Positions 3,914 through 35,575 are shown, counted from the stretch's first letter. The stretch is DNA of 45,163 bases from Victivallales bacterium (GCA_900769285.1 CAAGGB010000279.1:1-45163), one strand, 5' to 3'. A program made the numbers and translations. The notes: generated from the letters alone by a model not told the origin.

Positions 3914-3946
3914 CCCGCCCCAACCCCACATCCCCCCCACACACAA

Positions 3947-3982: not shown

Positions 3983-4032
3983 TTGTCTGCCTGACCGCGC
4001 AGGCTCAGTCTGACGCCACCGCGCGGCGCGGC

Positions 4033-10839: not shown

Positions 10840-10943
10840 CACCGCCCGTTTCCCGCTTACATTACACCTCATGCGCCATGCTTCCGACGGCGCCCGGCCC
10901 CGCCTCCCACCAGACAAGACACGCACAGAGGAGAAACCTGTCC

Positions 10944-12533: not shown

Positions 12534-12555
12534 CGACCGCGGCATCGCGCCAGGA

Positions 12556-12599
12556 GGAGGACGGACAAGGCAAAAAAACATCCGCCTTTTCCGTCCTCC
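12556..12599 (+). terminator. Possible hairpin after the flotillin gene
   Basis: GGAGGACGG ... CCGTCCTCC is a perfect 9-bp inverted repeat with an inner AAGGC/GCCTT stem. There is no clear U-tract. Confidence 0.3.
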
Positions 12600-12742
12600 C
12601 ACTGGCACCAGCGACCGCTCCGCGTGTCTCACACCCCTGACTGACAAGCCTTCCCGCCCCCTTCAGGCCGCCTGACGCTCGCCGTCCCGCGGCCTTTTCG
12701 TTCCCTCCCACCCACCCCACACCCCATCGCCCGCTGACCGCC

Positions 12743-16594: not shown

Positions 16595-16615
16595 ACCCGC
16601 CAGCCTACCAGCCCC

Positions 16616-17590: not shown

Positions 17591-17608
17591 CGGACGCCAC
17601 GCACACAC

Positions 17609-17657
17609 AAAAAAAGGACACGCCCAGACGGAGCATCTTCTCCATCCGGGCGCGTCC
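17609..17657 (-). terminator. Rho-independent terminator of the ferredoxin gene
   Basis: On the minus strand there is a GC-rich stem GGACGCGCCCGG / CTGGGCGTGTCC (~10 bp with one mismatch) with a 20-nt loop. It is immediately followed by U7 (A7 at 17609-17615 on the plus strand), 27 nt after the stop at 17684. Confidence 0.6.
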
Positions 17658-17683
17658 TATGCCGTGTGGCGCAGGCTGTGGAC

Positions 17684-17860
17684 TTAGTCCTCCAGCTTGA
17701 TGGCCTCGCAGGGGCAGGCGTCCACGCAGGCGCCGCAGCCAACGCAGGTGTCCTTGTCGACAACAGCCTTGTCATCAACGATCTTGATGGCCTCGACGGG
17801 GCAGCCATCGACGCAGGTACCGCAGCCGGCGCACTTCTCTTTATCAACAACAGCAGCCAT
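17684..17860 (-). CDS. Ferredoxin, 2x[4Fe-4S] (57 aa)
   Basis: Two CxxCxxCxxxCP motifs (CAGCGTCVDGCP and CVGCGACVDACP). The start MAAVV at 17860 is preceded by GAGGAAAAG 6 nt upstream. The longer ORF 17684..18085 was rejected because its N-terminus is Arg/Gly-rich off-pattern sequence. Confidence 0.85.
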   Translation of the reverse strand: MAAVVDKEKCAGCGTCVDGCPVEAIKIVDDKAVVDKDTCVGCGACVDACPCEAIKLED

Positions 17861-18225
17861 GTTCTTTTCCTCTTCTTTTGTGAGTTGCTTGACGACGGGC
17901 ATGGCACTGCCCGCTTCGCTTGCGCGAACGTCACCAATATAAGGGCTGTGCCCGCAATTGCAATGCGACAACGCCAAATTTGTCGCCGCCACGCCACGCC
18001 CCCACTCCGGACGCCTGTTGCGCCACGCCCCTCTCCACATTCTGGATACTCCTCCCACACCCCTGACGCCCCCCCCCTCACACACCAGGAAAAATTCCTC
18101 CCTCCAGTTCCGGAATGGGCATTGAAGAATTTGCCCCCACAGCTTATATTACCGCTAAAATGTCCTTTTTCCGCGGCCCGACGCCGCCCAGTCCCCCCAC
18201 GAAGTCCCCCTCCGCTCCCCAAACC

Positions 18226-19023
18226 ATGCCACAGCCGCTCCGCGTCGACGTGCACACCCACGTCTTCCACCCCAAAATCGCCGACAAAGTCGTCACCCAG
18301 CTCGAGGCGCACTACCACATCCCCCCCATCGGCAACGGCCGCTGGGAAGACCTCGCCGCGCACCTGGACCGGGCCGGCATCGACGCCTGCTTCGTCCACT
18401 CCGCCGCCACCACACCCCTTCAGGTCATCCCCGCCAACGACTGGGCCATCGCCCTCAACGACAACCCCCGCATCGTACCCTTCGGCACCATGCACCCCGA
18501 CTTCGAGGACATGACCGGCGAACTGGCCCGACTCCATGACCGCGGCATCCGCGGCATCAAGCTCCATCCGGACTTCCAGGGCTTCCGCCTCGACGACCCC
18601 AAGCTCCTCCCACTCTTCGGCGAGATGGAGGGCTCCTTCACCCTCATGGTCCACGTCGGCGACAGCCTCCCGCCAGACCAGAACCCCTCCTGCCCCTACA
18701 AGGTCGCCGCCATCAAGAGGCGCTTCCCAAAACTCCAGATCATCGCCGCCCATTTCGGCGGCTACCGACACTGGCAGTACGTCACCGACGCCCTCCACGG
18801 ACTCGACGTCTACATGGACACCTCCTCCAGCCTCTTCGCCATCCCACAGCCCCTCCTCGAGGACATCTTCTCCCATTTCCCACGACACCTCTTCCTCTTC
18901 GGCTCCGACTACCCACTCTTCCGCGACGAGGACGAGGTCCAGGAACTCCAGCGCCGACTCCGGCTCTCCGACGACGAGCTCGAGGAAATCCTCACCAACG
19001 GCTCCAGGCTGGGACTCTGCTGA
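18226..19023 (+). CDS. Amidohydrolase-2 (PF04909-type) metal-dependent TIM-barrel hydrolase/decarboxylase family protein
   Basis: N-terminal HxH (RVDVHTHVF), then H (MVHVGD), H (AAHFGGY) and D (FGSDYP) in the order expected for amidohydrolase_2. An alternative start at 18115 would add 37 aa (MGIEEF...); it cannot be decided from sequence. Confidence 0.75.
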   Translation: MPQPLRVDVHTHVFHPKIADKVVTQLEAHYHIPPIGNGRWEDLAAHLDRAGIDACFVHSAATTPLQVIPANDWAIALNDNPRIVPFGTMHPDFEDMTGELARLHDRGIRGIKLHPDFQGFRLDDPKLLPLFGEMEGSFTLMVHVGDSLPPDQNPSCPYKVAAIKRRFPKLQIIAAHFGGYRHWQYVTDALHGLDVYMDTSSSLFAIPQPLLEDIFSHFPRHLFLFGSDYPLFRDEDEVQELQRRLRLSDDELEEILTNGSRLGLC

Positions 19024-19026
19024 ACC

Positions 19027-19908
19027 ATGAAGCCCTACGCCTGGAACGGTATCCATCTGCAGCTCCCCGACGACTGGGAGATGCTCCAGTTCTCCAAGGA
19101 CCCCGCGCACGGTCGCATCGTCTTCGGCGACCGCTACCAACTGCGCTTCGAGCTCGACTGGGCCGCACTCGACCTCCCTCCTGACCTCGACCGCATGGCC
19201 GAGGACTACAAGGCAAAGCTCATCCAGGACGGCATCAAGGAGGCCAGACACACCGCCAGACACCCCTGGCAGGGCGTCACCGGACTCCAGGACGGCGCCC
19301 GCATCTCTCGCTACTGCGCCTACTTCAACGACCGCACCTACCTTCTCGAGGCCATCTTCCTCTGGCCACAGGACGACAACCCACGCCATAACCCGCAGTT
19401 CGAGGCGCGCCTCCTCGAGACCATCCGCGTCGTCCCACTCCAGAACGACCACCTCCAGGAATGGAACGCCTTCGGCATCCGCTGCCTCGCGCCCGACGAC
19501 CACCGGCTCGACGACTGCCTCGCCGAACCCGCCAACGTCCGACTCACCTTCACCTCCCCAGACCGCCGGCTCGAGGAGACCGCCACCCGCATCGGCATGC
19601 TCAAGGCCTGGCTCAACCGCGGCGTCGACGACTACCTCCGCACCCTCATCCCCAAGGACTACTCCCTCCTCTCCATGAGCCACGCCACTCAGGACGGACA
19701 CGACGTCTGGACCGCCGAGGCCACCATCACCCGAGCCGTCCTCACCGACTGGTGGCACGGCCGCAGACACTTCTCCGCCGCCGCCTGGATCTGCCCGCAG
19801 GACCAGCGGCTACGCATCCTCACACGAACCGCACCCGACCGCCGCGACGGACTCCCCCCGCCACCCGTCGCCCTCAGCTGCTGCGACAAGCTGGAGGTGA
19901 CCCTGTGA
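19027..19908 (+). CDS. Hypothetical protein (293 aa), no recognisable motif
   Basis: Codon usage is consistent with neighbours. The ATG lies 3 nt after the upstream stop, and its stop overlaps the next gene start (GTGA). This indicates a translationally coupled operon member. Confidence 0.6.
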   Translation: MKPYAWNGIHLQLPDDWEMLQFSKDPAHGRIVFGDRYQLRFELDWAALDLPPDLDRMAEDYKAKLIQDGIKEARHTARHPWQGVTGLQDGARISRYCAYFNDRTYLLEAIFLWPQDDNPRHNPQFEARLLETIRVVPLQNDHLQEWNAFGIRCLAPDDHRLDDCLAEPANVRLTFTSPDRRLEETATRIGMLKAWLNRGVDDYLRTLIPKDYSLLSMSHATQDGHDVWTAEATITRAVLTDWWHGRRHFSAAAWICPQDQRLRILTRTAPDRRDGLPPPPVALSCCDKLEVTL

Positions 19909-20282
19909 GCAAGCCCCACATCGCCACCGTCCAGGACAGCAACTGGAGACGAATGCTCCAGGCCATCCCCGAGAAGAACACCGCCGCACAGGTCACCCGA
20001 CACGGCGAGCAGGTCACCATCTCCATCCGCAACGTCCGGCCAGCCTACCTCAAGCCGCCCATCTCCTGGTTCGTCCCCTTCAAGGAACGCAGAGTCGTCA
20101 CCCTCGACCCAATCGGCACACGGCTCTGGTCCCTCTGCGACGGCTCGCGGACCGTCGAGGACCTCATCGACGCCTTCTGCGCCGACTACGGACTCACCTT
20201 CCACGAGGCCAAGACCTGCGTCACCGACTACCTCAAGAAGCTCGTCCAGAGAGGCGTCCTCGCTGTCGTCATCGACTCCTGA
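19905..20282 (+). CDS. PqqD-family protein (RiPP recognition element-like peptide chaperone), 125 aa
   Basis: VTLDPIGTRLWSLCDGSRTVEDLIDAFCADYGLTFHEAKTCVTDYLKKLVQRGVL fits the PqqD/RRE pattern (L-N-x-T-x-x-x-I-W-x-L-x-D-G-x-x-T-v-x-E-I-x-x-x-L-x-x-x-Y-x-v-...-D-v-x-x-F-L-x-x-L-x-x-x-G-L-I). The GTG start overlaps the upstream stop. Confidence 0.7.
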   Translation: MSKPHIATVQDSNWRRMLQAIPEKNTAAQVTRHGEQVTISIRNVRPAYLKPPISWFVPFKERRVVTLDPIGTRLWSLCDGSRTVEDLIDAFCADYGLTFHEAKTCVTDYLKKLVQRGVLAVVIDS

Positions 20283-20468
20283 CACCGCCACCAAAAAAAC
20301 CGCTCCCCGTAGGGGACGACGCCAATATGCGCCCCGCCCCATGCGTTGTAATCTAGTGTCGTGTTCCCCGGACACCCCGTCCGCGCACACACGCCCCCCC
20401 ACACACAAACTGGAACAGCATCACATAGCAAGCAAACCACCGACCAAAGGCACCCAGCAGGACCGAAC

Positions 20469-21986
20469 ATGAAAGAGATCAACATCGCAGAACAACCCTG
20501 GCTCAGTCTGAAGCGCACCGTGAAGATCACCATCGACGGCATCAGATACCGGTTGTTCCGGGCCACCGTCACCGTCGCCGTCATCGTCGTCGCCGTGGCC
20601 TTCCTCATGAACATCCTCGCCGAGTCCCTCATCAAGCGCGCCGTCGCCGCCGACACCCGCGAACGCTCCGACAACGCACAGCTCAACTCCAACTGGTCCA
20701 CCAAGCTCACCGCCACCGGCTCTCCCGAGTCCATCGTCGCCGAACTCGCCCGACTCGACGCCACCGCCGACGTCAACGTCGAGACCCGTAACTTCATCCG
20801 GCTCGCCGACGACGACTTCGCCAGGCTCCAGGACACCGCACGAGACGTCCAGTACGTCCTCGACTTCTTCGACGACCTCGACTACGCCAAGCGCCGAGAC
20901 CTCATCAAGACAGCCGCCGGACTCGAAATCCTCGACTACCTCGCGCGACCCGAGAACTTCGACACCTTCAAGCTCGGACTCGACCGCTACCGCATGATCC
21001 GCTTCGAGATGGACTTCGACAAGCTCCAGAAGCTCATCGCCGAACGCGCCGTCTTCCGCAAGACCCTCGACGACATCATCGCCAAGCGCCACGAGGCCAA
21101 CGCCAAGATCACCGCCTTCCTCAAGGCCGAGTACAGGGACAACCCAACACTCGTCAACGACGCCGACCGACTCGCCATGGCCATGACCAACGCCGACGGC
21201 AAATTCGGCGACGTCATCCGCAGCGCCGGCTTCAACTTCGACCCCCAGCGCATCGCACCCATCGTCGCCGACCAGGCCAAGAACCAGCAGTTCATCCTCC
21301 GCATGAAATTCTCCATCACCGGCGCCAGCAACAAGACCCGACAGCTCCTCGCGCAGGAGGCCAACAAGATACCCTCCGACATCAACGAGGCCATCATGTG
21401 GGACTACCTCGAAAGCGCCTCCTTCGCCAAGCGCTACATCCAGGTCATGCAGGAGAGCGGCATGGACACCACCGACCTCACCCCCGAACTCCTCGTCAAG
21501 CTCGCCAAGGCCCGCAAGGAGACCGCCGCGCTCGCACGCGCCAAGCGACTCACCATGGACTCCGGAAAGGGCTTCATGGGACTCGGCGAGCGACTCGCCT
21601 ACCTCCTCGTCGTCTCCTTCCTCGTCTGCGGCATCGGCATCACCAACGCCATGATGATGTCCGTCACCGAGCGCTTCACCGAAATCGCCACCCTCAAGTG
21701 CCTCGGCGCACTCGACGGCTTCATCATGATCATGTTCGTCCTCGAAAGCTGCATCATGGGCATCGTCGGCGGAACCATCGGCGCCGTCATCGGCGCCGTC
21801 ATCGGCACCGGACGCATGATGGCATCCTTCGGCGTCAACTTCTTCGCCGCCATCCCCGTCCTCGACATCTTCGGTGGCATCCTCATCTCCATCCTCCTCG
21901 GTACACTCCTCGCCGCCTTCGCCGCCGTCGTCCCATCCTTCAAGGCCGCACGGCTCGCACCCATGGAGGCCATGCGCGTCGAATAG
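20469..21986 (+). CDS. ABC transporter permease, FtsX/MacB family
   Basis: N-terminal TM (ATVTVAVIVVAVAFLMNIL), a ~330-aa periplasmic domain, then the FtsX signature MSVTERFTEIATLKCLGA followed by 3 TM helices. Confidence 0.85.
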   Translation: MKEINIAEQPWLSLKRTVKITIDGIRYRLFRATVTVAVIVVAVAFLMNILAESLIKRAVAADTRERSDNAQLNSNWSTKLTATGSPESIVAELARLDATADVNVETRNFIRLADDDFARLQDTARDVQYVLDFFDDLDYAKRRDLIKTAAGLEILDYLARPENFDTFKLGLDRYRMIRFEMDFDKLQKLIAERAVFRKTLDDIIAKRHEANAKITAFLKAEYRDNPTLVNDADRLAMAMTNADGKFGDVIRSAGFNFDPQRIAPIVADQAKNQQFILRMKFSITGASNKTRQLLAQEANKIPSDINEAIMWDYLESASFAKRYIQVMQESGMDTTDLTPELLVKLAKARKETAALARAKRLTMDSGKGFMGLGERLAYLLVVSFLVCGIGITNAMMMSVTERFTEIATLKCLGALDGFIMIMFVLESCIMGIVGGTIGAVIGAVIGTGRMMASFGVNFFAAIPVLDIFGGILISILLGTLLAAFAAVVPSFKAARLAPMEAMRVE

Positions 21987-22073
21987 GGCCACTCCCCCTC
22001 ACACGGAACGCCCCCCACACACGACGACGGCACACCTGAACTCATCACTCATCACATAACCCAACGGCAAACC

Positions 22074-22844
22074 ATGGAAGAGACCAACAGAACAGCAGCA
22101 GGCGAGAAGAGCGCCGAAAGGCGAGTCATCATCCGAACCGTCGGACTCAAGAAGATCTACACGATGAACAACGTCACCACCGAGGCCCTCCGAGGCGTCG
22201 ACATGTCCATCTTCCAGGGCGAGTTCATCTCCGTCATGGGCCCCTCCGGCTCCGGAAAGTCCACCTTCTTCAACATGATCGGCGCCCTCGACAGCCCCTC
22301 CATCGGACGCGTCTTCATCGACGAGGTCGACGTCGCCCAGCTCACCGCCGAGGAGCTCGCCTTCCTCCGCTGCCACAAGATCGGCTACATCTTCCAGAGC
22401 TACAACCTCATCCGCTACATGACCGCACTCGAGAACGTCACCACTCCCATGGCCTTCGGCGGTGTCCAGCCCGACGAGGCCCGCGAGCGCGGCATGAACA
22501 TCCTCGACCTCGTCGGACTCAAGGAACGCTGGCACCACCGCCCCATCGAGATGTCCGGCGGACAGCAGCAGCGCGTCGCCATCGCCCGCTCCCTCGCCAA
22601 CGACCCCTCCGTCCTCCTCTGCGACGAGCCCACCGCCAACCTCGACCTCCACACCGGACAGGAAATCCTCGACATCCTCAAGCGACTCAACGTCGAGAAG
22701 GGCGTCACCGTCATCTGCGCCACCCACGACCACCGCATGATGAACATCTGCGACCGGCTCATGTGGATCCGCGACGGACGCATCGACCGCATCGCCAACC
22801 GCGAGGACGTCCACATCGAGGTCGGAGGCATCGAGGGACACTGA
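22074..22844 (+). CDS. ABC transporter ATP-binding protein (MacB/LolD-type ATPase)
   Basis: Walker A GPSGSGKST, Q-loop, signature SGGQQQRVAIAR, Walker B LLCDEPTANLD and H-loop ATHD. Confidence 0.9.
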   Translation: MEETNRTAAGEKSAERRVIIRTVGLKKIYTMNNVTTEALRGVDMSIFQGEFISVMGPSGSGKSTFFNMIGALDSPSIGRVFIDEVDVAQLTAEELAFLRCHKIGYIFQSYNLIRYMTALENVTTPMAFGGVQPDEARERGMNILDLVGLKERWHHRPIEMSGGQQQRVAIARSLANDPSVLLCDEPTANLDLHTGQEILDILKRLNVEKGVTVICATHDHRMMNICDRLMWIRDGRIDRIANREDVHIEVGGIEGH

Positions 22845-22968
22845 AGCCCCCCCACACCCCACACACACCTCCCCACACGCAGGCAATCATCAACTGAACA
22901 TACAACCGCCGCCGCGCCGCCACACCCACTGGTCGGCCGACGCAAAAGACAAGGGCTTTCCACTGACC

Positions 22969-25900
22969 ATGCGATCACTGCTCAAAACCTCAAGGGCCCT
23001 GGGACTGGGCGCCATCTTCAGTCTCACCGCTGGCCTGGCCTTCGCGCAGCAGCCGAACGACCCCAAGGCCACCTTCAACCGCGACTGCGCCGAAATCGGA
23101 CGCTTCCCGCACCGGCTCACCGGCACCGCCGAGTACCGCCAGGCCGCCGACTACATCGAGCGCCGCCTCCGCGCCATCGTCAGCGCCAAGGACGGCGACC
23201 AGGTCATCGTGCAGCCCTTCGACTCCGCCCAGATCGTCACCCCCACCGTCAAGACCGACCCCAACGACCGCCGCAACGACGCCATCGTCAAGGGACAGGA
23301 CCAGGAGGCCACCGCCACCCTTACCGCACCCGCCGGCAAGACCATCCGACTCCACCCCATGAGGCCCAACGGCATCATCCCGCCCGCCACCCCGCGCGGA
23401 GGCCTCTCCGGTCACATCGTCTACCTCGGACGCGGCGACGCCGCCGACTTCAACCGCATCAACGTCAAGGACGCCATCGTCGTCCTCAACTACAACTCCG
23501 GACAGGGCTTCATCCGCGCCTTCCGACTCGGCGCCAAGGCCATCGTCTTCACCCGCGGCAACGACATGCCCGAGAAGGCCATGTCCTCCAGCCCCCACTT
23601 CGCCGACTGCAACGTCAACCTCATGCGCTACTACTTCGACGGCACCGCCGCCCAGCTCAAGGCCGACTGCCCCGAGAACGCCACCGTCGCCATCGACTGC
23701 AAGCTCAACTGGGGCTACGCCCGCGGACGTAACATCTACGCCTACATCAAGGGCACCAACGCCAAATTCGACCCCGACAAACGCCATGAGGTCATCGTCC
23801 TCGCCGCCAACCTCGACACCTTCGGCGAAGTCCCCAACCTCACCCCAGGCGCCCGCGGAGCCGCCAACGCCGCCGCGCTCCTCCGACTCGCCGAACACAT
23901 CGTCGCCAGCCGCCCGCGACGCGATGTCGTCATCGCCTTCTTCGACCAGCAGGCCCGCGGACACGTCGGCGTCTCGCACTTCTACCAGGCCATCGAGGAC
24001 AAGAAGGACAACCAGGTCACCGACCGCCGCATCTCCTTCCGCAACGAGACCAACTTCATGAAGCTCATGGACGAGCAGCTCGCCGACGCCTCCCCGCTCA
24101 CCAAGAGCTCCGACGTCCGCAAGAAGCTCCTCGACAAGCTCGAGGTCCTCTCTCAGACACACGCCTACTACTACAAGAACGAGGCCTACGAGAAGCGCGA
24201 ACGGCTCAACCAGCGCAAGAAGGCCGCCGCCGCCGCAGGCGGCGTCACCGACGAGCTCCGCAAGGAGGAGCAGGAGCTCAACCAGCTCATCGCCGCCGAA
24301 CTCGAGCCCAAGAAGATGGCCTGGAACGAAGTCCAGAGAACCATCGGACGCGAAAAGCGCAAGTACACCGGCGACGACCAGCCCCTCCAGCTCGACCCCG
24401 AACTCTCCGAACAGGAGCGCACCCTCGTCAACCAGTTCCTCGCACAGGTCCTCGACGAGGCCCGCCGCGACTACGACGTCCGCAAGGAGGAGCTCAAGCG
24501 CGAGGACGAGGCCCTCGCCGCCGACGAGGCACTCTACGACATCTTCTACCCCAAGGCCCTCGACGAACAGGGACAGCCCATCCTCGAGAACGAGGAGGAC
24601 GGCATCTACGCCCGCGACCCCAAGCAGGCCCGAACCATCGTCCTCCACGCCTCCCTCCTCCTCGGCGACACCACCCGCAAGTGGGCCATCATCATCGGCG
24701 GCGACTCCTCCATCCACAGCGGCGACGACAACCAGGGACTCTACGGCAAGGTCCGCAACGCCTTCCTCAACGCCTACAAGGCCATCGCCGCCAACGCCGC
24801 CCCCAACGCCGACGTCCAGGACAACTTCCTCGTCGAGTCCGCTGACCAGAAGCTGAACCAGACCCGCGTCATCTGGGCCGCACCCAGACTCGTCCACTCC
24901 GGCGAAATGGCCGGCGTCCTCGGCTACTTCAACCTCGCACTCGGAACCGTCCAGGAGGCCACCCTCCTCGAGGGCACGCCCGACGACACCTTCGCCAACA
25001 TCAGCGCCGACGCCATCTACGCGCAGATCCGCGACATCGAGCGCTTCTTCGCACCCGCCGCCAACTTCCCCGAACAGGCCGCCGCCGACATGCTCGGAAA
25101 CCAGGAGGGACTCTCCCTCAACAAGGGCTTCCCCACCAACAAGGAGTACTTCATCGCCAAATTCGACGAGGACAACAACACCAAGGGACCAACCGTCATG
25201 GGCATGCTCCCCGGCACCTCCACCCCCAACACACCCCTCGCCGGCGCCATCGTACAGCTCCGACTCTCCCGCAACTTCTCACTCGCCTACGCCGAGTCCA
25301 AATTCGTCGCCTTCGACAACTACCAGGTCCACCGCACCGACGCCAACGGACACTACAACCTCGGCCCCCTCAACGGACGCACCGCCGGCTCCTGGGGCGG
25401 CTTCGCCGCCGTCTTCCGCCCCGAAGGCAACCTCGATGAGGTCTCCGCGCAGAGCACCTACACCAACGGCACCATCCGCTACCGACTCAACACCTTCAAG
25501 GCCAAGGGCGCCTACGTCGTCCTCCCCTCACAGCAGCGCACCGAAAAGCTCCCCGGCGAGGACGTCAAAATCCTCTCCTCAAAGGCCAACGCCGACCTCG
25601 TCACCAACCGCTCCTTCTCCGAGACCGTCGACGGCATCGTCGCCTGGTACTCCGACGAGCGCGAGCGCGGCGTCAAGCTCTTCTCTCTCCGACAGATGGT
25701 CGGACTCAACAACGGCAACGAGCAGAAGAGCCGACTCGACGCCTCCGACGCCGGTAAGCTCCAGGACGACGGCACCGACAAGTACGTCGGCGTCGGCTTC
25801 GAAATGACCGAACACCCCATCAGCGTCAACGCCGCCGCACGCTCCGCCTCCGACCTCTGGCGCATCAACGACTCCAGACTCGACATCCTCCGCAACAAGG

Positions 25901-28185
25901 GCATCCTCGACTCCTCACTTGCCGAACTCCACGGACGCTCCGAGGACATGCTCAACGACGCCGCTGACTCACAGCAGCCCATGCGCCGCGAGGCTCTCAA
26001 CACCTTCTCCTTCTGGTCCTCCAGACCCGTCTACCTCAAGGTCCGCTCCATGCTCGACGACCTCGTCTTCGCCGTCCTCATCCTCCTCGGACTCTCCGTC
26101 CCCTTCGCCTTCGCACTCGAACGCGTCATCATCGGCGCCGTCACCATCTACAAGCAGATCTCCTGGTTCATCGCGTTCTTCGCCATGACCTTCGTCCTCC
26201 TCTACCTCACCCACCCCGCCTTCGCCATCGCCAACACACCCATCATCATCTTCCTCGGCTTCGCCATCGTCGTCATGTCCTGCATGGTCATCTTCATCAT
26301 CATGCGCAAATTCGAGGTCGAGCTCAAGGCCATGCAGGGCATGACCGCCACCGTCCACGTCAACGACGTCTCCAACATCTCCACATTCATGGCCGCCATG
26401 CAGATGGGCATCTCCACCATGAGACGACGCCCCACCCGCACCGCCCTCACCGCCATCACCATCATCCTCCTCACCTTCACCATCCTCTGCTTCGCCTCCT
26501 TCGGCACCCAGAACGGCATCGTCACCATCTCCGTCGCCCCCAACCCCAAGTACAACGGCGCCTTCGTCCACAACGTCAACTGGAACCCGCTCTCCGAAGA
26601 CCTCAAGGACATGATCACCTACAGCCGGGCCGGCGAAGGCGAATCCTCCGCCATCCGCTCCGTCTGCAAGCGACTCTGGATCTCACCCAAGACTCAGGAC
26701 AACCCCGGACTCCTCATCTCCAGAGCCGACGGAACGCTCCCGACCACCATCCGCGGCGTCCTAGGCATCGAGCCTCAGGAACTCAACGAGCGCGAGGAAT
26801 TCATGGAGTACTTCCAGAAGATCGACGACGACTCCATCCTCATCACCCAGCCCGTCGCCGAATACCTCAAGGTCGCCGAGGGCGACACCGTCGTCCTCAA
26901 GGGACACACCTTCAAGGTCGGAAAGATCTTCGACAACGTCAGGGTCTCCGCCGCCAAGGACATGGACACCTCCTCCATCCTCCCCGCCGACTTCACCGAA
27001 ATGACCGCCAACCAGCCCGTCTCCTCAGACAACGACGAGGAGATGGACGCCATGAGCCAGCGAAACTGGTCCTCCATCCCCGTCGACCAGGTCGTCATCG
27101 TCTCCGCCAACAACGCCAAGCTCCTCGGAGCTAACCTCTACGCCCTCGTCGTCTACACAAACACCACCCAGCAGGCCATCTCCATCGCCGAGGAGCTCGC
27201 CCGTGTCCTCAACATCCCCATCCCCGCCACCCGCGAGAACGGCGTCGAACGACACCTCCTCGGCTCCGTCCTCAAGGCCTCCGGCGCCAAGGACCTCTTC
27301 TTCCCCATCGTCCTCGGCGGACTCGTCATCTTCGGAACCATGCTCGGCTCCGTCGCCGACCGCAAGAAGGAAATCTACACCTTCTCCGCACTCGGTCTCG
27401 CCCCGAGACACGTCGCCACACTCTTCTTCGCCGAATCCATGGTCTACGCCCTCATCGGCGGCCTCGGCGGATACCTCCTCGCTCAGGGTACCCTCAAGAT
27501 CCTCGGCTTCCTCGCCGAATACGGCATCGTCAGAGTCCCCGAGATGAACATGTCCTCCACCAACACCATCGTCACCATCCTCATCGTCATGGCGACCGTC
27601 CTCATCTCCTCCATCTACCCCGCCATCAAGGCCTCAAAGTCCGCCAACCCCGGACTCATGAGAACCTGGAGACCACCCAGACCCGACGGCGACGTCATGG
27701 ATCTCGTATTCCCCTTCACCGTCTCCCAGTACGACATCACCGGCGTCCTCTCCTTCCTCAAGGAGCACTTCGCCAACCACACCGACACCGGACTCGGACA
27801 GTTCATGACCTCCAGCGTCGAACTCGTCAAGGAAAAGGACGCCAAGGAACTCGCACTCGGACTCGACGCCAAGCTCGCGCTCGCACCCTTCGACCTCGGC
27901 GTCTCCCAGAACTTCTCCCTCCGCAGCGCTCCCTCCGAAATCGAGGGCATCGACGAGGTCCGCGTCATCCTCTCCAGAGCCTCCGGACAGCCCAAGGACT
28001 GGCAGAGACTCAACAAGGTCTTCCTCGATGACCTCAGACAGCAGTTCCTCATCTGGCGCTCCGTCCCCAAGGACACCATGGAGATGTACCGCCACAGAAC
28101 CCTCACCAGCATCGACGGCATCGCTGAAGTCGTCACCCCGCCCAAAAAGGCCGACGCCAACCCCGACGCCAAACCAAAGGCCTAA
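22969..28185 (+). CDS. Giant fusion protein (1738 aa): N-terminal PA-domain/M28-peptidase-like ectodomain (metal ligands substituted), coiled-coil region, 3 TM linker, complete FtsX/MacB-type permease
   Basis: Signal peptide MRSLLKTSRALGLGAIFSLTAGLAFAQQ. The M28-like N-terminus has HRLTGTAEYRQAADYIERRL and a PA-domain-like insert DAIVVLNYNSGQGFIRAFRLGAKAIVF. In the M28 core the canonical H-x-D, GAxDNASG and EE metal ligands are replaced (VLAANLD, GARGAANAA, FFDQQ). A Glu/Lys-rich helical region follows (KKAAAAAGGVTDELRKEEQELNQ...). Three hydrophobic helices lie at residues ~1040-1110. The FtsX N-terminal helix is MRRRPTRTALTAITIILLTFTILCF, with a periplasmic domain after it. The FtsX core is KKEIYTFSALGLAP plus 3 TM, and the cytoplasmic tail is ~170 aa. 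Confidence 0.8.
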   Translation: MRSLLKTSRALGLGAIFSLTAGLAFAQQPNDPKATFNRDCAEIGRFPHRLTGTAEYRQAADYIERRLRAIVSAKDGDQVIVQPFDSAQIVTPTVKTDPNDRRNDAIVKGQDQEATATLTAPAGKTIRLHPMRPNGIIPPATPRGGLSGHIVYLGRGDAADFNRINVKDAIVVLNYNSGQGFIRAFRLGAKAIVFTRGNDMPEKAMSSSPHFADCNVNLMRYYFDGTAAQLKADCPENATVAIDCKLNWGYARGRNIYAYIKGTNAKFDPDKRHEVIVLAANLDTFGEVPNLTPGARGAANAAALLRLAEHIVASRPRRDVVIAFFDQQARGHVGVSHFYQAIEDKKDNQVTDRRISFRNETNFMKLMDEQLADASPLTKSSDVRKKLLDKLEVLSQTHAYYYKNEAYEKRERLNQRKKAAAAAGGVTDELRKEEQELNQLIAAELEPKKMAWNEVQRTIGREKRKYTGDDQPLQLDPELSEQERTLVNQFLAQVLDEARRDYDVRKEELKREDEALAADEALYDIFYPKALDEQGQPILENEEDGIYARDPKQARTIVLHASLLLGDTTRKWAIIIGGDSSIHSGDDNQGLYGKVRNAFLNAYKAIAANAAPNADVQDNFLVESADQKLNQTRVIWAAPRLVHSGEMAGVLGYFNLALGTVQEATLLEGTPDDTFANISADAIYAQIRDIERFFAPAANFPEQAAADMLGNQEGLSLNKGFPTNKEYFIAKFDEDNNTKGPTVMGMLPGTSTPNTPLAGAIVQLRLSRNFSLAYAESKFVAFDNYQVHRTDANGHYNLGPLNGRTAGSWGGFAAVFRPEGNLDEVSAQSTYTNGTIRYRLNTFKAKGAYVVLPSQQRTEKLPGEDVKILSSKANADLVTNRSFSETVDGIVAWYSDERERGVKLFSLRQMVGLNNGNEQKSRLDASDAGKLQDDGTDKYVGVGFEMTEHPISVNAAARSASDLWRINDSRLDILRNKGILDSSLAELHGRSEDMLNDAADSQQPMRREALNTFSFWSSRPVYLKVRSMLDDLVFAVLILLGLSVPFAFALERVIIGAVTIYKQISWFIAFFAMTFVLLYLTHPAFAIANTPIIIFLGFAIVVMSCMVIFIIMRKFEVELKAMQGMTATVHVNDVSNISTFMAAMQMGISTMRRRPTRTALTAITIILLTFTILCFASFGTQNGIVTISVAPNPKYNGAFVHNVNWNPLSEDLKDMITYSRAGEGESSAIRSVCKRLWISPKTQDNPGLLISRADGTLPTTIRGVLGIEPQELNEREEFMEYFQKIDDDSILITQPVAEYLKVAEGDTVVLKGHTFKVGKIFDNVRVSAAKDMDTSSILPADFTEMTANQPVSSDNDEEMDAMSQRNWSSIPVDQVVIVSANNAKLLGANLYALVVYTNTTQQAISIAEELARVLNIPIPATRENGVERHLLGSVLKASGAKDLFFPIVLGGLVIFGTMLGSVADRKKEIYTFSALGLAPRHVATLFFAESMVYALIGGLGGYLLAQGTLKILGFLAEYGIVRVPEMNMSSTNTIVTILIVMATVLISSIYPAIKASKSANPGLMRTWRPPRPDGDVMDLVFPFTVSQYDITGVLSFLKEHFANHTDTGLGQFMTSSVELVKEKDAKELALGLDAKLALAPFDLGVSQNFSLRSAPSEIEGIDEVRVILSRASGQPKDWQRLNKVFLDDLRQQFLIWRSVPKDTMEMYRHRTLTSIDGIAEVVTPPKKADANPDAKPKA

Positions 28186-28261
28186 TCGCCTAGCCTGACA
28201 AGGACGACACCCACGGCACCAACAGACTACACCTTCATTCACCAGGCGAGGAACACTCACG

Positions 28262-30298
28262 ATGTCAGTACACAAGATAGACAAAGAACTTGACGAATTC
28301 AGAAAAATCATGGAAGTCCCCTCCACCTTCGAGGAGGGCTTCAACTGGACCGCGCTCTTCGGAGCCATCTTCGTCGCCCTCCTCATGGTCCCAGGCGCCA
28401 TCTACATGGGCCTGCTCGCCGGACAGGGCATCGGCGACGCCGCACAGTGGGTCACCGTCATCCTCTTCATCGAGGTCGCCAAACGCGCCCACCGATACCT
28501 CAACAAGTCCCAGATCTTCGTCCTCTTCTACATGGCCGGCGCACTCATGGGCGCCGCCACCACCGGAGGTCTTCTCTGGCAGCAGTTCTTCATCCAGTCC
28601 GACGCCGTCGCCGCCAACGGCATGACCACCCAGATCCCACGCTGGTACGCGCCATCCCTCGAGTCCACCTCCTACGTCAACAGAACCTTCTTCCACGTCG
28701 ACTGGCTCCCCGCCATCGTCCTCCTCGTCATCGGCTCCTTCATCGGACAGCTCTCACACCTCGTCCTCGGATACGGACTCTTCCGCGTCTGCTCCGACAT
28801 GGAGAAGCTCCCCTTCCCCATGGCCCCCGTCGGCGCACAGGGCATCATGGCCATGGCCGAGGACATCGAGGCCAAGAACAACAAGGACGCCGAAGGCTCC
28901 TGGCGCTGGAGAGTCTTCGCCATCGGCGGTGCGCTCGGACTCGCCTTCGGCCTCATCTACCTCTTCCTCCCCGTCATCTCCGGCGCACTCACCGGCACCG
29001 CCATCCAGATCTTCCCCATCCCATTCTCCGACTTCACCGACAAGACCGGACAGTTCCTCCCAGCCGTCGCCACCGGCATCAACTGGAGCTTCGGCAACCT
29101 CATCGCCGGCATGGTCATGCCCTACTGGGGCATGGTCGGCTCCTTCATCGGACTCATCGTCACCGTCGTCGCCAACCCCATCCTCTACAAGTACGGCATG
29201 CTCTCCAACTGGAAGACCGGCGACGACACCATCTGGACTCTCTTCAAAAACAACATCGACTTCTACTTCTCACTCCACATCGGCATCGCCCTCGCCATCG
29301 CCATCGCCGGCATCTTCCAGGTCGTCAAGAGCCTCCACGCCAGCAGAAAGGCCCGCAAGGACCCCAACACCCGCGTCGAACTCGGCTCCTGGAAGGACGT
29401 CCCGCAGGGACGCGGAGACTTCTCCGCCTGGTTCATCCTCCTCTGCTACTTCTTCGTCACCTGCTCCTACATCGGCATCTCCATCGGACTCCTCTGCTGG
29501 CATAACACCAGCAACGGCCTCCCCGCCTGGAACTCGCAGATCACCAGCGTCCTCATCGTCCTCCTCATCCTCGGCTTCGTCTACACACCCCTCATCAGCT
29601 ACGTCACCGCGCGACTCGAGGGCATGGTCGGACAGGTCGTCGAAGTCCCGATGATCCGCGAGGCCGCCCTCATCCTCTCCGGATACAAGGGCATCGCCAT
29701 CTGGTTCCTCCCCCTCCCCATCGCCAACTACGGCGCCTCCACCGTCTTCTACCGCCAGTGCGAACTCACCGGCACCAAGTTCACCTCCATCTGGAAGACC
29801 AAGATCATCCTCTATCCGCTCGTCCTCTTCGCCTCCATCTTCTTCATGAACTTCATCTGGGGACTCGACAAGATACCGTCCGTCGCCTACCCGTTCGCGC
29901 AGAAGATGTGGGAGCTCAACGCCGCCAACTCCTGCATCATGTTCACCGCCACCATGGGTGAGTACTCCATGTTCGAGCGCGCCTTCAACCCCATGATCAT
30001 CGGCGCCGGCACCTTCTTCGGACTCTTCCTCTTCACCACCATGAACATCCTCGGCGCACCCATCATGCTCACCTACGGCGTCGTCCGCGGACTCGGACAG
30101 AGCGCCCCACACACCATCCTCCCACAGTTCATCGGAGCCCTCATCGGACAGTTCTACTTCAAGAGAAAGCTCCAGCTCAAGTGGAGGCAGTACATCCCCG
30201 TCGTCGCCGCCGGCTTCTCCTGCGGCATGGGCCTCATCACCACCGTCGGCGTCGGCGTCACCTTCCTCTCCAAGGCCGTCATCAAGCTGCCGTTCTGA
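28262..30298 (+). CDS. Polytopic integral membrane protein (678 aa, 12 or more predicted TM), family unassigned; possibly OPT-like
   Basis: Continuous ORF with GAGGAA RBS 9 nt upstream. Translation is dominated by hydrophobic helices. No FtsX, ABC or MFS signature was recognised. Confidence 0.65.
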   Translation: MSVHKIDKELDEFRKIMEVPSTFEEGFNWTALFGAIFVALLMVPGAIYMGLLAGQGIGDAAQWVTVILFIEVAKRAHRYLNKSQIFVLFYMAGALMGAATTGGLLWQQFFIQSDAVAANGMTTQIPRWYAPSLESTSYVNRTFFHVDWLPAIVLLVIGSFIGQLSHLVLGYGLFRVCSDMEKLPFPMAPVGAQGIMAMAEDIEAKNNKDAEGSWRWRVFAIGGALGLAFGLIYLFLPVISGALTGTAIQIFPIPFSDFTDKTGQFLPAVATGINWSFGNLIAGMVMPYWGMVGSFIGLIVTVVANPILYKYGMLSNWKTGDDTIWTLFKNNIDFYFSLHIGIALAIAIAGIFQVVKSLHASRKARKDPNTRVELGSWKDVPQGRGDFSAWFILLCYFFVTCSYIGISIGLLCWHNTSNGLPAWNSQITSVLIVLLILGFVYTPLISYVTARLEGMVGQVVEVPMIREAALILSGYKGIAIWFLPLPIANYGASTVFYRQCELTGTKFTSIWKTKIILYPLVLFASIFFMNFIWGLDKIPSVAYPFAQKMWELNAANSCIMFTATMGEYSMFERAFNPMIIGAGTFFGLFLFTTMNILGAPIMLTYGVVRGLGQSAPHTILPQFIGALIGQFYFKRKLQLKWRQYIPVVAAGFSCGMGLITTVGVGVTFLSKAVIKLPF

Positions 30299-30431
30299 CG
30301 TCCCCTTCACCTCCACGCACCGGCACGGCCCCCCCACACACAGCCTTGCCGGGGCGCGGACATCACCCCAGGACAGCCCACGACTTCCCCCCTCCAATCC
30401 GTCCTCAACCTCCAGCGGGAGACTCCGACAT

Positions 30432-31163
30432 ATGGCTCAGCAGCAAGAAGTACTCATCAAAGTCGAACACGTCAACAAGACGTTCAACCTCGGCAAAGTC
30501 ATCGTCCATGCCCTCAAGGACATCAACCTTGAGATCTACCGCGGCGAATACCTCTCCATCATGGGCCCGTCAGGCTCCGGAAAGAGCACCATCTTCAACA
30601 TGATCGGCGCACTCGACAAGCCCTCCTCCGGCTTCGTCGAAGTCGCCGGCGTCAACCTCACTAAGCTCACCGCCCGACAGCTCGCCCATTTCCGCGGCAA
30701 CCACATCGGCTACGTCTTCCAGGCCTACAACCTCCTCCACGCCTACGACGCCATCACCAACGTCATGATGCCGCTCCTCTTCTCCGGAGTCGACCCCGAA
30801 AAGGCCCGCGAACGCGCCATCGAGGTCCTCAAGATGGTCGAGCTCGGACACCGGCTCACCCACAAGCCCGACGAGATGTCCGGCGGTCAGCAGCAGCGTG
30901 TCGCCATCGCCCGCGCCCTCGCCAACGAGCCCGCCATCATCCTTGCCGACGAGCCCACCGCCAACCTCGACCTCAACACCGGCGAGGAAATCATCCACCT
31001 ACTCTCCGACCTCTCACGCCGACTCGGCGTCACCGTCATCACCGCCACCCACGACCACAAGATGCTCGCCTCCTCCGACCGCATCCTCTGGATCAAGGAC
31101 GGACAGGTCGACAAGCTCGAACGCCGCGAAGACCTCAACATCAAGGTCGGCACCGTCAAATAA
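30432..31163 (+). CDS. ABC transporter ATP-binding protein (second MacB/LolD-type ATPase)
   Basis: Walker A GPSGSGKST, signature SGGQQQRVAIAR, Walker B ILADEPTANLD and H-loop ATHD. It is a paralog of the ATPase at 22074. Confidence 0.9.
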   Translation: MAQQQEVLIKVEHVNKTFNLGKVIVHALKDINLEIYRGEYLSIMGPSGSGKSTIFNMIGALDKPSSGFVEVAGVNLTKLTARQLAHFRGNHIGYVFQAYNLLHAYDAITNVMMPLLFSGVDPEKARERAIEVLKMVELGHRLTHKPDEMSGGQQQRVAIARALANEPAIILADEPTANLDLNTGEEIIHLLSDLSRRLGVTVITATHDHKMLASSDRILWIKDGQVDKLERREDLNIKVGTVK

Positions 31164-31233
31164 CCCCTCGCCTTCACACGCACAGCTCCCCCGCGGCCTC
31201 ACGACTAGCTTGTTTAGCCCAGCCGCTTTTTCA

Positions 31234-31272
31234 GGGGCGTCCATGCCATTCGCGCACGGACGCCCCTCTTCT
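31234..31272 (+). terminator. Hairpin terminator closing the plus-strand ABC operon
   Basis: Perfect 9-bp inverted repeat GGGGCGTCC / GGACGCCCC with a 15-nt loop, followed by TCTTCTGCTG, 70 nt after the stop at 31163. Confidence 0.5.
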
Positions 31273-31333
31273 GCTGGCAGCGAAAGCAGCGCGAGCAACG
31301 GGAGCAACGCGAGCGGGAGAGAGGGAGCAACGC

Positions 31334-31387
31334 GAGAGACGAGAGAGACGAGAGAGACGAGAGAGACGAGAGAGACGAGAGAGACGA
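31334..31387. repeat. Intergenic minisatellite, 9-bp unit GAGAGACGA x6 perfect copies, flanked by degenerate copies (31280-31400)
   Basis: Direct reading of gagagacga gagagacga gagagacga gagagacga gagagacga gagagacga. It lies between the operon terminator and the glycan island, and is non-coding. Confidence 0.9.
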
Positions 31388-31680
31388 GAGCAGCGAGAGA
31401 AAAAGAACGCCACGACAGCGGCGCCTGTCCCCTCGGTCACCTCGCCATTCCTTCCTCATGACCCAAAATTGTCTTGCCCCGTAGTTGCAAAAAGAACAAA
31501 GAACACTATACTTTGCTCATGTGTACTCAACAGGGTATCCGTCACCTTGAGAAAATGACTTTTTTCTCCCGATGCCAAGCGTCCCTTCGCTTCGTTGCTG
31601 GACGCAAAAGCTTTTCTAACGTCATCTCGCCACCCCGTAGCCTCCACACGAATTTTCCATACGTCGTCATCACCACCGCC

Positions 31681-35563: not shown

Positions 35564-35575
35564 TTGGAGAAGACT

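Follow-up and report, generated by a model that had tools for sequence, protein, structure and literature searches.

A conserved gene cassette of FtsX-type ABC components, an OPT-like permease and a PqqD-like protein as a candidate envelope machine

The window studied here, a 45,163-nt stretch of DNA from a Victivallales bacterium (GCA_900769285.1, CAAGGB010000279.1:1-45163), contains a gene cassette that is conserved as a unit of seven to eight genes. In order, the core encodes a tandem PsbP/Mog1-like protein, a PqqD-like RiPP recognition element (RRE), an FtsX permease, ATPase 1, a giant protein of 1738 aa, an OPT-like permease, and ATPase 2. Our preferred interpretation, to which we give a probability of about 40%, is that these products form one multi-subunit inner-membrane type VII ABC machine together with an OPT-fold permease, which would handle a peptide-containing or amphipathic substrate, probably in the outward direction. 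A sequence-only reading of the window had proposed an undescribed envelope machine encoded by the whole 13.6-kb block. Its central points, a conserved unit and the absence of a matching characterized system in curated models or the literature, held up; the boundaries of the unit, the inclusion of an amidohydrolase and a ferredoxin, and the failure to recognize the OPT relationship did not. Its suggestion that the genes encode an ATP-driven device for export or mechanotransmission, with a peptide or an envelope component as substrate, is a reasonable inference. A literature search for DUF6785, DUF6784 (see below), or a PqqD and FtsX pair returned no paper, and the function of the cassette appears to be unstudied.

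Eight genes run in the same direction (18226-31163), with a ferredoxin gene divergent from them; nine co-directional genes had been counted at first. See Table 1 for the coordinates of all features. The distances between the eight genes are, in order, 3, -4, 186, 87, 124, 76, and 133 nt. The GTG start of the PqqD-like gene overlaps the preceding stop codon by 4 nt, and the gene is predicted to be translationally coupled to that of the 293-aa protein. As had been described, the small ferredoxin gene has its own terminator, a strong one on the minus strand (17615-17658; a 19-bp stem plus T-run). The single hairpin assigned to the end of the operon is present and terminator-like, and is followed by CUUCUGCU; however, it has no canonical U-tract and was not called in a consensus terminator scan. 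Nearly all of the original domain calls were correct when compared with Pfam and NCBIfam, including Amidohydro_2, PqqD, FtsX in both permeases, and LolD/MacB-type ATPases.

Table 1. Features of the cassette region, in window coordinates.
Feature	Position	Strand	Basis or remark
2x[4Fe-4S]-type ferredoxin, 58 aa	17684..17860	-	Translation; two CxxCxxCxxxCP motifs
Amidohydro_2 (metal-dependent TIM-barrel hydrolase/decarboxylase family)	18226..19023	+	Pfam 1e-21; 3 nt 5' of cassette
293-aa protein, two tandem PsbP/Mog1/DcrB-like domains	19027..19908	+	Core cassette member
PqqD-like RiPP-recognition-element protein (winged-helix peptide-binding), 125 aa	19905..20282	+	Pfam PqqD
FtsX-type (type VII ABC) permease 1, 505 aa	20469..21986	+	Pfam FtsX 1e-13; hydropathy
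ABC ATPase 1 (LolD/MacB/FtsE-type nucleotide-binding domain)	22074..22844	+	Motifs; NCBIfam LolD
Giant permease, 1738 aa	22969..28185	+	Signal peptide, ectodomain, TM/FtsX core, C-domain
Giant: pseudo-peptidase, residues 27-340, PA-domain M28 aminopeptidase fold	23047..23988	+	Family profile
Giant: E/K/L/A/D/R-rich charged insertion, residues 345-545	24001..24603	+	Composition; length variation
Giant: stalk, three extra TM, elbow helix, FtsX core, residues 955-1559	25831..27645	+	
Giant: cytoplasmic C-terminal domain, residues 1560-1738	27646..28182	+	
678-aa polytopic membrane protein, divergent OPT superfamily member	28262..30298	+	Pfam OPT
ABC ATPase 2 (LolD/MacB-type)	30432..31163	+	Motifs; synteny
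GC-rich hairpin, terminator-like	31233..31268	+	10-bp; fold z = -2.9

The boundaries of the cassette were redrawn from a comparison with 86 related loci. A relative of the giant protein is encoded in at least 554 species genomes from several phyla. The cassette occurs in Lentisphaerota (the source of the window), Kiritimatiellota, Verrucomicrobiota, Planctomycetota, Myxococcota, Fibrobacterota, and Sumerlaeia, with Omnitrophota among the 86 synteny loci. The OPT-like gene lies directly 3' of the giant gene at 73 of 73 loci, ATPase 2 comes next at 64 of 65, and FtsX permease 1 and ATPase 1 are immediately 5' of the giant gene at 59 of 61. The PqqD-like gene was found at 51 of 59 loci and its 293-aa partner at 48 of 59; approximately 14-19% of the loci with sufficient flank have no PqqD or PsbP-like gene nearby, which counts against our preferred interpretation. 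A DUF6785/DUF6784 membrane protein is a frequent extra member of the cassette (20/37 loci) that is missing from the window, and the gene set as first listed was incomplete in this respect.

Dozens of distantly related genomes have this gene order, far more than chance would allow. Gene order is constant between phyla at 30-45% protein identity, and four rearranged loci still hold all of the parts together. Both observations speak against a chance adjacency of two or three operons (amidohydrolase/unknown/PqqD, FtsX-ATPase, and giant/membrane protein/ATPase), an extremely unlikely account, although promoters could lie in the 186-, 124-, and 133-nt gaps. It is refuted for the seven core genes, but is correct for the ferredoxin and largely so for the amidohydrolase. 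An amidohydrolase ortholog adjoins the cassette only at three loci, all from close Lentisphaeria relatives, and is a lineage-specific addition outside the core. The ferredoxin gene is not retained beside the cassette in related loci and is a mere neighbor unrelated to it. In evolutionary terms, the genes for the PqqD-like protein, both FtsX proteins, both ATPases, the giant fusion, and the large polytopic membrane protein are one conserved unit, and the predicted co-occurrence of the giant gene was seen with PqqD-like genes but with the amidohydrolase at those three loci only. No further conserved neighbor family was found in the 86 loci; therefore, the cassette is self-contained.

FtsX permease 1 has, by hydropathy, TM1, a ~325-aa extracytoplasmic domain, and then TM2-4. 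No relatives of the extracytoplasmic domain were detectable, and the family profile matches MacB, LolC/E/F, YtrF, and FtsX over TM2-4 only. The Walker A, signature, Walker B-Glu, and H-loop are all present in ATPase 1, the catalytic motifs of both ATPases are intact, and ATPase 2 is 51% identical to ATPase 1. The two fall into separate orthologous classes, with the nearest neighbor in the same class in 117 of 117 cases, and their sequences indicate that they are ancient paralogs. The cassette has the hallmarks of a type VII ABC system, including the 4-TM FtsX fold with an extracytoplasmic domain between TM1 and TM2 and an intact LolD/MacB/FtsE-type ATPase.

None of the curated LolCDE, FtsEX, or MacB models reaches its cut-off. 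The two ATPases score 215 (ATPase 1) and 239 bits against NCBIfam LolD (cut-off 308) and 198 and 206 bits against FtsE (265), lolCE reaches 45.8 bits (362), the FtsX models 17-22 (225-255), and MacB 45 bits (966). MacAB-TolC and FtsEX-EnvC share the permease fold and the ATPase family with the cassette, and mechanotransmission would be expected in all of them. However, the 86 cassette loci have no conserved MacA-like membrane-fusion adaptor or outer-membrane factor, the ATPases are separate genes and not fused to the permease as in MacB, and no EnvC/PcsB-like (coiled-coil LytM/CHAP) activator is conserved.

The giant protein consists of a signal peptide, an inactive M28/PA ectodomain, beta domains, a helical stalk, three extra TM helices, an FtsX core, and a cytoplasmic C-domain. 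The window protein alone falls just below the Pfam M28 cut-off (20.7 vs 21.3), but the family profile matches M28/PA proteins clearly: YwaD at 1e-15, 2ek8 at 3e-15, nicastrin at 5e-7, and nicalin at 1e-4. The M28 ligand motifs are changed from HxD to (N/P/A/H)xD, from PGA-NDD-ASG to PGA-R(G/A/S)A-AN, and from EE to (N/G/Q)(Q/E). The full metal/catalytic set is kept in none of 66+13 sequences, in a mapping that covers these three motifs. With metal ligands absent family-wide and a fold match at 1e-15, the original label of "pseudo-M28" was well chosen. The pocket itself is retained, with Asp283 invariant, Arg296 and Asn300 each in 63 of 66 sequences, and His332 in 57 of 66. Nicastrin (of gamma-secretase) and nicalin (of the ER BOS complex) likewise carry an M28/PA ectodomain that lacks the metal site and serves non-enzymatically in a polytopic membrane complex; they are eukaryotic and have no ABC engine, and the likeness is an analogy of role with homology at the level of the fold only.

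A charged insertion of 82-401 aa in the family follows the M28 "EE" position. It gave a weak helical-repeat match and nothing stronger, and from its composition is probably a long helical or coiled-coil arm. The FtsX core has TM1, a MacB/LolCE-type periplasmic domain, and TM2-4; the giant protein has a true type VII permease core. An FtsX core enlarged by extra TM helices is also seen in YbbAP-TesA and BceAB-BceS, where the partner, periplasmic in the former and membrane-embedded in the latter, defines the function. In those systems, however, 10 TM helices arise from a duplicated FtsX, compared to 3+4 in the giant protein, and the partners are an esterase and a histidine kinase, whereas the cassette has an OPT-fold permease, a fused pseudo-peptidase, and cytoplasmic binding proteins. 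FtsX permease 1 and the giant protein may form a heterodimer, which is conjectural, as opposed to two separate homodimeric engines. No BLAST-level similarity was found between FtsX permease 1 and the FtsX core of the giant protein, and this counts against our preferred interpretation.

The C-domain is family-specific and is the most conserved soluble part of the giant protein. Its predicted topology is beta-alpha-beta4-alpha-alpha, which is not Rossmann-like, and it is possibly KA1- or helix-grip-like on our assignment of those matches to it; the structure model of the giant protein is of moderate confidence (pLDDT 76). The giant protein also matches two PADLOC "CARF_m8" profiles, PDLC01991 at 4e-58 over positions 11-599 of 810 and PDLC01990 at 4e-27, which presumably derive from the 2020 CARF classification by Makarova et al. 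The CARF_m8 LolE-TM proteins have the stalk, three extra TM helices, and FtsX core in common with the giant protein, and one subgroup is also ~1800 aa long with a large ectodomain. Unlike that of the giant protein, their ectodomain is beta-galactosidase-like rather than pseudo-M28/PA, and the CARF domain implied by the family name would lie at the C-terminus, where the giant protein has its own C-domain. Profile positions ~600-810 of PDLC01991 were unmatched, and the C-domain alone aligned only with positions 534-601, at the TM4 junction, with an E value of 0.004. By profile match and C-domain topology, we found no CARF domain in the giant protein. These profile matches could be taken to indicate an anti-phage defense or nucleotide-signaling effector, but this is very improbable, as the match is confined to the stalk/TM/FtsX core, the other cassette proteins have no PADLOC matches, and the flanks are variable without a recurring shared gene family. 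Because the CARF_m8-named sister family would carry its CARF domain at this position, analogy suggests that the C-domain is a ligand- or partner-binding module.

The sensor presumed at that position in the sister family, together with the family-specific C-domain, a pseudo-enzyme ectodomain with a long charged arm, and the lack of a substrate gene, speaks for an FtsEX-like regulator rather than a transporter. ATP-driven movements of the ectodomains would activate, or bring into position, a periplasmic enzyme or envelope structure that is genetically unlinked, and the OPT-like and cytoplasmic proteins would be regulatory partners, as BceS is for BceAB. This would be typical type VII logic (PMC12646458). 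We nonetheless consider it unlikely, since the neighborhood has no conserved hydrolase or other effector and the invariably adjacent transporter-fold protein, the most conserved of the cassette, is left unexplained.

The sequence-only reading had left this 678-aa protein unassigned. It matches Pfam OPT at 27.3 bits against a gathering threshold of 25.8, over the last ~90 model positions only, and 24 of 36 orthologs match the same model, the best at 1e-16. The orthologs are 50-84% identical across phyla. At E<=1e-20 there are at least 3475 clusters of relatives, which NCBI calls "peptide transporter" or "OPT/YSL family transporter"; no solved or characterized close relative was found. The shared Pfam match places the protein with the OPT family (TC 2.A.67), but it is very divergent and strictly ABC-linked, with a transport role that is only predicted. 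To our knowledge, strict linkage to ABC genes is not a feature of characterized OPT proteins, and all of these are importers, which conflicts with the outward direction that we favor.

Importers of this kind would fit better with peptide uptake or sensing, in which the M28/PA domain captures peptide N-termini, the OPT-like permease imports them, the RRE/PsbP-like pair receives or senses them, and the ABC engines gate or load the permease. Three modules do come from peptide-handling families (OPT, M28/PA, and the PqqD RRE), and many of the phyla with the cassette are polymer degraders. Uptake is nevertheless improbable in our view. The peptidase is dead family-wide, such elaboration and strict conservation (65% identity across phyla) are rare in nutrient importers, RREs are known to us in biosynthetic settings only, and no importing type VII ABC system is known (PMC12646458).

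The PqqD-like protein scores 48.2 bits against Pfam PqqD (cut-off 23.4; 1e-12), and all NCBIfam PqqD subfamilies are far under their cut-offs. The 293-aa protein is a tandem alpha/beta sandwich of the PsbP/Mog1 type, without a TM segment, catalytic motif, or catalytic relatives, and in one genome the PsbP-like and PqqD domains occur as a natural fusion protein. The cytoplasmic Eag (DUF1795) chaperones PA0094 and SciW also have a PsbP/Mog1-type fold and hold hydrophobic segments before export; however, the cassette protein has two tandem domains, no sequence similarity to them, and no T6SS link. The winged-helix domain is common to RRE-dependent RiPP pathways, and the name "RiPP-recognition element" is correct as a fold, but the rest of such a pathway is absent. 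No precursor-peptide ORF (25-110 aa) is conserved in or around 87 loci, where recurring small ORFs are antisense shadows, and no modifying enzyme family (radical SAM, YcaO, protease, or other) is conserved in the 86 loci. That the cassette is a RiPP cluster carrying its own exporter or immunity transporter is therefore largely refuted and most unlikely. Some RiPP clusters, such as that of darobactin, do encode FtsX-type exporters, but the cassette ATPases score 200-210 bits against a DarD cut-off of 375, the fold of the RRE partner is non-enzymatic, and the amidohydrolase is not conserved.

Type VII ABC systems act through mechanotransmission, with functions set by their partner proteins (PMC12646458). 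In our preferred interpretation, cytoplasmic ATP hydrolysis by the ATPases would drive movement of the large extracytoplasmic domains of the two FtsX proteins. The inactive M28/PA domain, with its conserved non-metal pocket and long arm, would be a periplasmic receptor or hand-off site, and the OPT-fold permease would let a substrate of invariant chemistry, peptide-containing or amphipathic, pass through or within the membrane. The RRE and tandem PsbP-like protein could be a cytoplasmic, non-enzymatic peptide-binding adaptor or chaperone that docks on the machine, perhaps at the C-domain of the giant protein or the conserved N-terminal tail of the OPT-like permease. We infer these subunit contacts from gene order alone. 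Transfer would run from the cytoplasm to the membrane and on to the periplasm or envelope, because type VII ABC systems, RREs, and Eag-type chaperones all act on that export side. Against this interpretation, no substrate gene is conserved in or beside the cassette. Furthermore, characterized type VII systems do not usually move substrates across the cytoplasmic membrane (PMC12646458), so the role given to the OPT-fold permease lacks precedent.

A bolder version of the same idea, which we regard as possible but doubtful, is an unrecognized trans-membrane route. Type VII engines, so far seen in outer-face work only, would be coupled to one or more OPT-fold permeases that move cargo through the bilayer. 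The RRE/PsbP-like adaptor would pick out a peptide or lipopeptide whose gene lies elsewhere, or alternatively gate the machine via the invariant N-terminal tail of the permease, and the dead aminopeptidase on its long arm would take the cargo in the periplasm. If true, this would be a new envelope export or insertion pathway in PVC bacteria, myxobacteria, and fibrobacteria, and would give an RRE its first role outside biosynthesis.

In structure, the core is closest to LolC/E, HrtB, and YbbP, which take hydrophobic molecules out of the membrane, and lipids or hydrophobic segments are common ligands of PsbP/DcrB/LpqN-type and helix-grip/KA1-type folds. Both points favor a reading that we rate as quite unlikely, the extraction of a lipid, lipopeptide, or lipoprotein, as by LolCDE or YbbAP-TesA, with the cytoplasmic lipid-binding-type folds holding cargo, the OPT-like or DUF6785 permease flipping it, and the FtsX cores extracting it to the ectodomain. 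LolCDE is itself among the closest known systems. Compared to it, the cassette scores far under the LolC/E/D equivalog cut-offs and has two distinct ATPases, a ~1000-aa ectodomain with a dead M28/PA domain, three extra TM helices, a cytoplasmic C-domain, an OPT-like partner, and the RRE/PsbP-like pair, and no link to LolA/LolB was seen. The two nonetheless have in common a pair of different FtsX-fold permeases with MacB/LolCE-type periplasmic domains and LolD-like ATPases. A variant cassette consisting of the giant, OPT-like, PsbP-like, and PqqD proteins, a short FtsX protein, and one ATPase only resembles LolCDE more closely still, with two permeases and a single ATPase gene, and supports our preferred interpretation by arguing that two permeases can share one engine as they do there.

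We searched the proteins of the window by tblastn against 86 related loci from other genomes (L numbers below), with precomputed gene tables at hand for eight of these. The OPT-like permease gene lies directly 3′ of the gene for the giant protein, a pseudo-M28/FtsX permease, at 73/73 loci, and it is followed by ATPase 2 at 64/65. FtsX 1 and ATPase 1 sit immediately 5′ of the giant gene at 59 of 61 loci, and the same search placed PqqD near it at 51 of 59 and the gene for the 293-aa PsbP-like protein at 48 of 59. A polytopic DUF6785/DUF6784 protein of ~680–1000 aa, missing from the window, is a member of the cassette at 20 of 37 loci (L001, L002, L006, L010, and others), with two copies at L010. 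In rearranged versions, the components of the cassette still stay together. The PsbP-like/PqqD pair lies downstream at L068 and L069, while L004 and L087 share the variant order giant, OPT-like, PsbP-like, PqqD, a 228-aa FtsX, and a single ATPase. A single 450-aa polypeptide at L005 combines the 293-aa protein with PqqD. The recurring gene order, these rearranged versions, and the L005 fusion indicate a functional unit of seven genes here (19027–31163) and eight in many genomes.

Genes of the cassette and its neighbors in the window
Feature	Coordinates	Strand	Remark
Ferredoxin, 2x[4Fe-4S]-type, 58 aa	17684–17860	-	Divergent
Amidohydro_2 protein	18226–19023	+	
293-aa protein (PsbP-like)	19027–19908	+	
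PqqD-like protein, 125 aa	19905–20282	+	Start overlaps stop of 293-aa gene
FtsX permease (FtsX 1), 505 aa	20469–21986	+	
ABC ATPase 1	22074–22844	+	
Giant protein, 1738 aa	22969–28185	+	
Membrane protein (OPT-like), 678 aa	28262–30298	+	
ABC ATPase 2	30432–31163	+	

The domain calls of the sequence-only reading were confirmed by Pfam and NCBIfam. It had counted nine co-directional genes; there are eight on the plus strand, plus the divergent ferredoxin gene, which does have the terminator of its own that had been proposed, a strong one (a 19-bp stem and a T-run). The hairpin terminator placed at the end of the operon is present as a GC-rich hairpin at 31233–31268 after ATPase 2 (z = −2.9), but it has no clean U-tract. 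The observation thus holds and the reading of it is partly supported: the core idea of genes that belong together stands, their proposed boundaries do not, and the function is unproven. The amidohydrolase was rejected as a member, adjoining the cassette in three close Lentisphaeria relatives only, as was the ferredoxin, which is unconserved at other loci apart from one distant match. Clustering of all flanking ORFs revealed no further conserved family beside the cassette.

Two intergenic regions have features of their own. Between PqqD and FtsX 1, a gap of 186 nt (20283–20468) is the site of the DUF6785 gene in many relatives, and it holds a short hairpin, TCCCC-GTA-GGGGA, beside an A-run that would make a terminator only if read on the minus strand. 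The spacer between ATPase 2 and a GT2 gene (31285–31400) contains two 9-nt tandem repeats, AGCAACGCG x3.3 and ACGAGAGAG x7.9.

The giant protein begins with a Sec-type signal peptide followed by a PA-domain M28 fold. Its family profile matched YwaD and 2ek8 (both 1e-15), nicastrin (5e-7), and nicalin (1e-4). The M28 catalytic set is lost in all 79 of the 79 family sequences inspected: HxD mostly became N/P-x-D, PGA-NDD-ASG became PGA-R-(G/A/S)-A-A-N, and the Glu-Glu pair became N/G/Q then Q. Asp283, Arg296, Asn300, and His332 of the giant protein are strongly conserved, which suggests a ligand pocket of a different kind. A charged insertion of 82–401 aa follows the M28 part. In the AF2 model of residues 700–1738 (pLDDT 76), beta domains are followed by a long stalk of helices, by three extra TM helices and an elbow helix, and finally by a type VII permease core of canonical form, whose periplasmic domain is of the MacB/LolCE type.

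PADLOC matched the giant protein to “CARF_m8--CARF_LolE_TM” (PDLC01991, 4e-58) and “CARF_m8--CARF_Beta-galactosidase_LolE_TM” (PDLC01990, 4e-27). Both matches cover only the stalk/TM/FtsX core (window 25879–27783) and leave the profile beyond the core unmatched; membership in a defense system was rejected on this basis. Judged by these alignments, CARF_m8 is a sister family that shares the unusual stalk and 3+4-TM FtsX core with the giant protein. We infer that the CARF sensor domain implied by its name lies in the C-terminal stretch of the profile that stays unmatched, a presumed position that would correspond to that of the giant family’s own C-domain (residues 1560–1738). One CARF_m8 branch is also ~1800 aa long but has a beta-galactosidase-like ectodomain. 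A literature search on CARF plus LolE, which had the 2020 CARF classification outside its range, returned nothing relevant.

The 678-aa protein is a divergent member of the OPT superfamily and the best-conserved protein of the cassette; at 90% clustering, its relatives number at least 3475. A sequence search against solved structures gave nothing useful. Its N-terminal tail (~30 residues, 28262–28350), D(K/R)ELEEFRxxMEVPSTFEEGFxW, is near-invariant from Lentisphaerota to Myxococcota. The OPT-like protein and DUF6785 have the motif E-x-LP(F/Y)P(M/I)A in common, but their hhalign match (P 0.006, probability 6%) is too weak to make the two clear paralogs.

FtsX 1 is recognizable in TM2–4 alone, and its ~300-aa ectodomain had no relatives among PDB structures by sequence search. 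ATPases 1 and 2 are 51% identical and keep every catalytic motif; each is 44–46% identical to one unrelated MacB-type ATPase, slightly below their mutual value. They form two clean orthologous classes, the nearest neighbor belonging to the same class in 117 of 117 cases. An origin of the cassette by tandem duplication of [OPT-like + FtsX + ATPase] is unsupported, given this level of ATPase identity and FtsX cores (FtsX 1 and giant) that show no BLAST similarity to each other.

The 293-aa protein has no sequence relative of known structure. Its model (pLDDT 91.8) contains two PsbP/Mog1/DcrB-type domains, a fold also found in Eag effector chaperones, DcrB, and LpqN. His225, Cys256, Cys285, and Cys286 are kept in 34–35 of 43 orthologs; in the second domain, this His-Cys-Cys-Cys set may bind a metal or serve in redox chemistry. 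The PqqD-like protein scores above the Pfam cut-off and below all curated NCBIfam PqqD subfamilies. We rejected a RiPP cluster, as 87 loci held no conserved precursor ORF (25–110 aa) and no conserved modifying enzyme; the small ORFs that recur across them are only antisense shadows of core genes. The cytoplasmic pair are non-enzymatic binding modules, one of which, the RiPP-recognition element (RRE), is a dedicated peptide-binding fold. The cytoplasmic N-terminal tail of the OPT-like permease is a candidate for the linear peptide bound by this RRE; the tail is conserved everywhere, with or without PqqD nearby.

LolCDE, FtsEX, MacAB, and, as the latest case, YbbAP-TesA have each proved to power an important envelope process of their own. 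In type VII ABC systems such as these, ATP hydrolysis moves periplasmic domains, and the partner proteins define the job (PMC12646458). The engine of the cassette is a type VII ABC system of this known kind, while its partner set, found in no characterized member, and its architecture have no characterized counterpart. Given its set of partners, which comprises a fused dead aminopeptidase, an OPT-fold permease, often a further large permease (DUF6785/6784), and a cytoplasmic binding pair, we read the cassette as one composite inner-membrane machine for a peptide-containing or amphipathic molecule, with a probability of roughly 40%. In such a machine, the RRE/PsbP-like pair would be the adaptor or chaperone on the cytoplasmic side, the OPT-fold protein the path through the membrane, the FtsX/ATPase pairs the motors, and the pseudo-peptidase on its long arm the periplasmic acceptor. 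The OPT-like permease, always adjacent and under the strongest constraint, suggests that the cargo would be invariant.

Three main rivals were weighed against this composite machine: an FtsEX-like regulatory switch, the extraction of lipids or lipoproteins, and the import or sensing of peptides. The cassette is none of LolCDE, FtsEX, and MacAB themselves: its proteins miss the curated cut-offs for all three by wide margins, and flanking-ORF clustering of the loci found no linked EnvC-type partner, nor MacA, TolC, or LolA. The variant cassette, with its one ATPase and its minimal second FtsX, hints that the two permeases could act as a LolCDE-like heteromer. OPT proteins are known as importers, which counts against an outward direction. 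Outward movement of the cargo is nevertheless favored, since type VII systems act in export-side processes, as do RREs and Eag-like chaperones. No Rfam element or riboswitch naming a ligand was credibly matched in 17–32 kb, and full-text searches on DUF6785, DUF6784, PqqD+FtsX, FtsX+M28+OPT, and FtsX+nicastrin yielded nothing relevant. We consider it unlikely that the cassette represents a genuinely novel kind of envelope route. If the parts do form one machine, a secondary-transporter fold (OPT) would be harnessed by ABC engines, DUF6785/DUF6784 and a sizeable set of OPT proteins from bacteria would gain a function, and RREs would reach beyond natural-product biosynthesis.

At least 554 species encode a confirmed relative of the giant protein, going by a scan with one genome for each GTDB species. 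Carriers belong to Lentisphaerota/Victivallales, Kiritimatiellota, Verrucomicrobiota, Planctomycetota, Myxococcota (Polyangiaceae), Fibrobacterota/Chitinivibrionales, Sumerlaeia, and Omnitrophota; envelope biogenesis is little understood in the first six of these groups. The C-domain alone has 1365 representatives at 50% clustering, 887 of them at E<=1e-10, placing the family at ~900–1400 protein clusters at 50% identity. It is C-terminal in the best 150 matches, mostly proteins of ~1600–1900 aa, and the shorter ones among these look like fragments. Locus L007, a contig from the MAG of an uncultured member of the Lentisphaeria, is 98% identical to the window. Among the carriers, at least the isolate Verrucomicrobia bacterium LW23 (locus L065) is in culture, which makes the question open to experiment.

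Elsewhere in the window, a 1316-aa ORF at 1294–5244 has no Pfam match, and two very large genes upstream of the cassette (9168–16594) specify a 1121-aa protein with an SPFH/Band 7/flotillin domain and a 1283-aa transglutaminase-core/DUF3857 protein. Codon bias is extreme across 12743–31163 and most of 1–35000, with third positions 68–74% C and 1–3% T, which gives the coding strand a GC skew of −0.3 to −0.45. In related genomes, the bias of the orthologs is far smaller (C3 29–54%). Between 35000 and 38000, G+C drops from ~0.62 to 0.47–0.52 and the skew is gone. The GT8 glycosyltransferase gene there (35564–36505) has a C3 of just 24% and is followed by a gene for a 1060-aa LRR_5/Big_2 protein. 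This stretch looks like a recently acquired island in a glycosyltransferase cluster (GT2, GT4, Stealth, and GT8).
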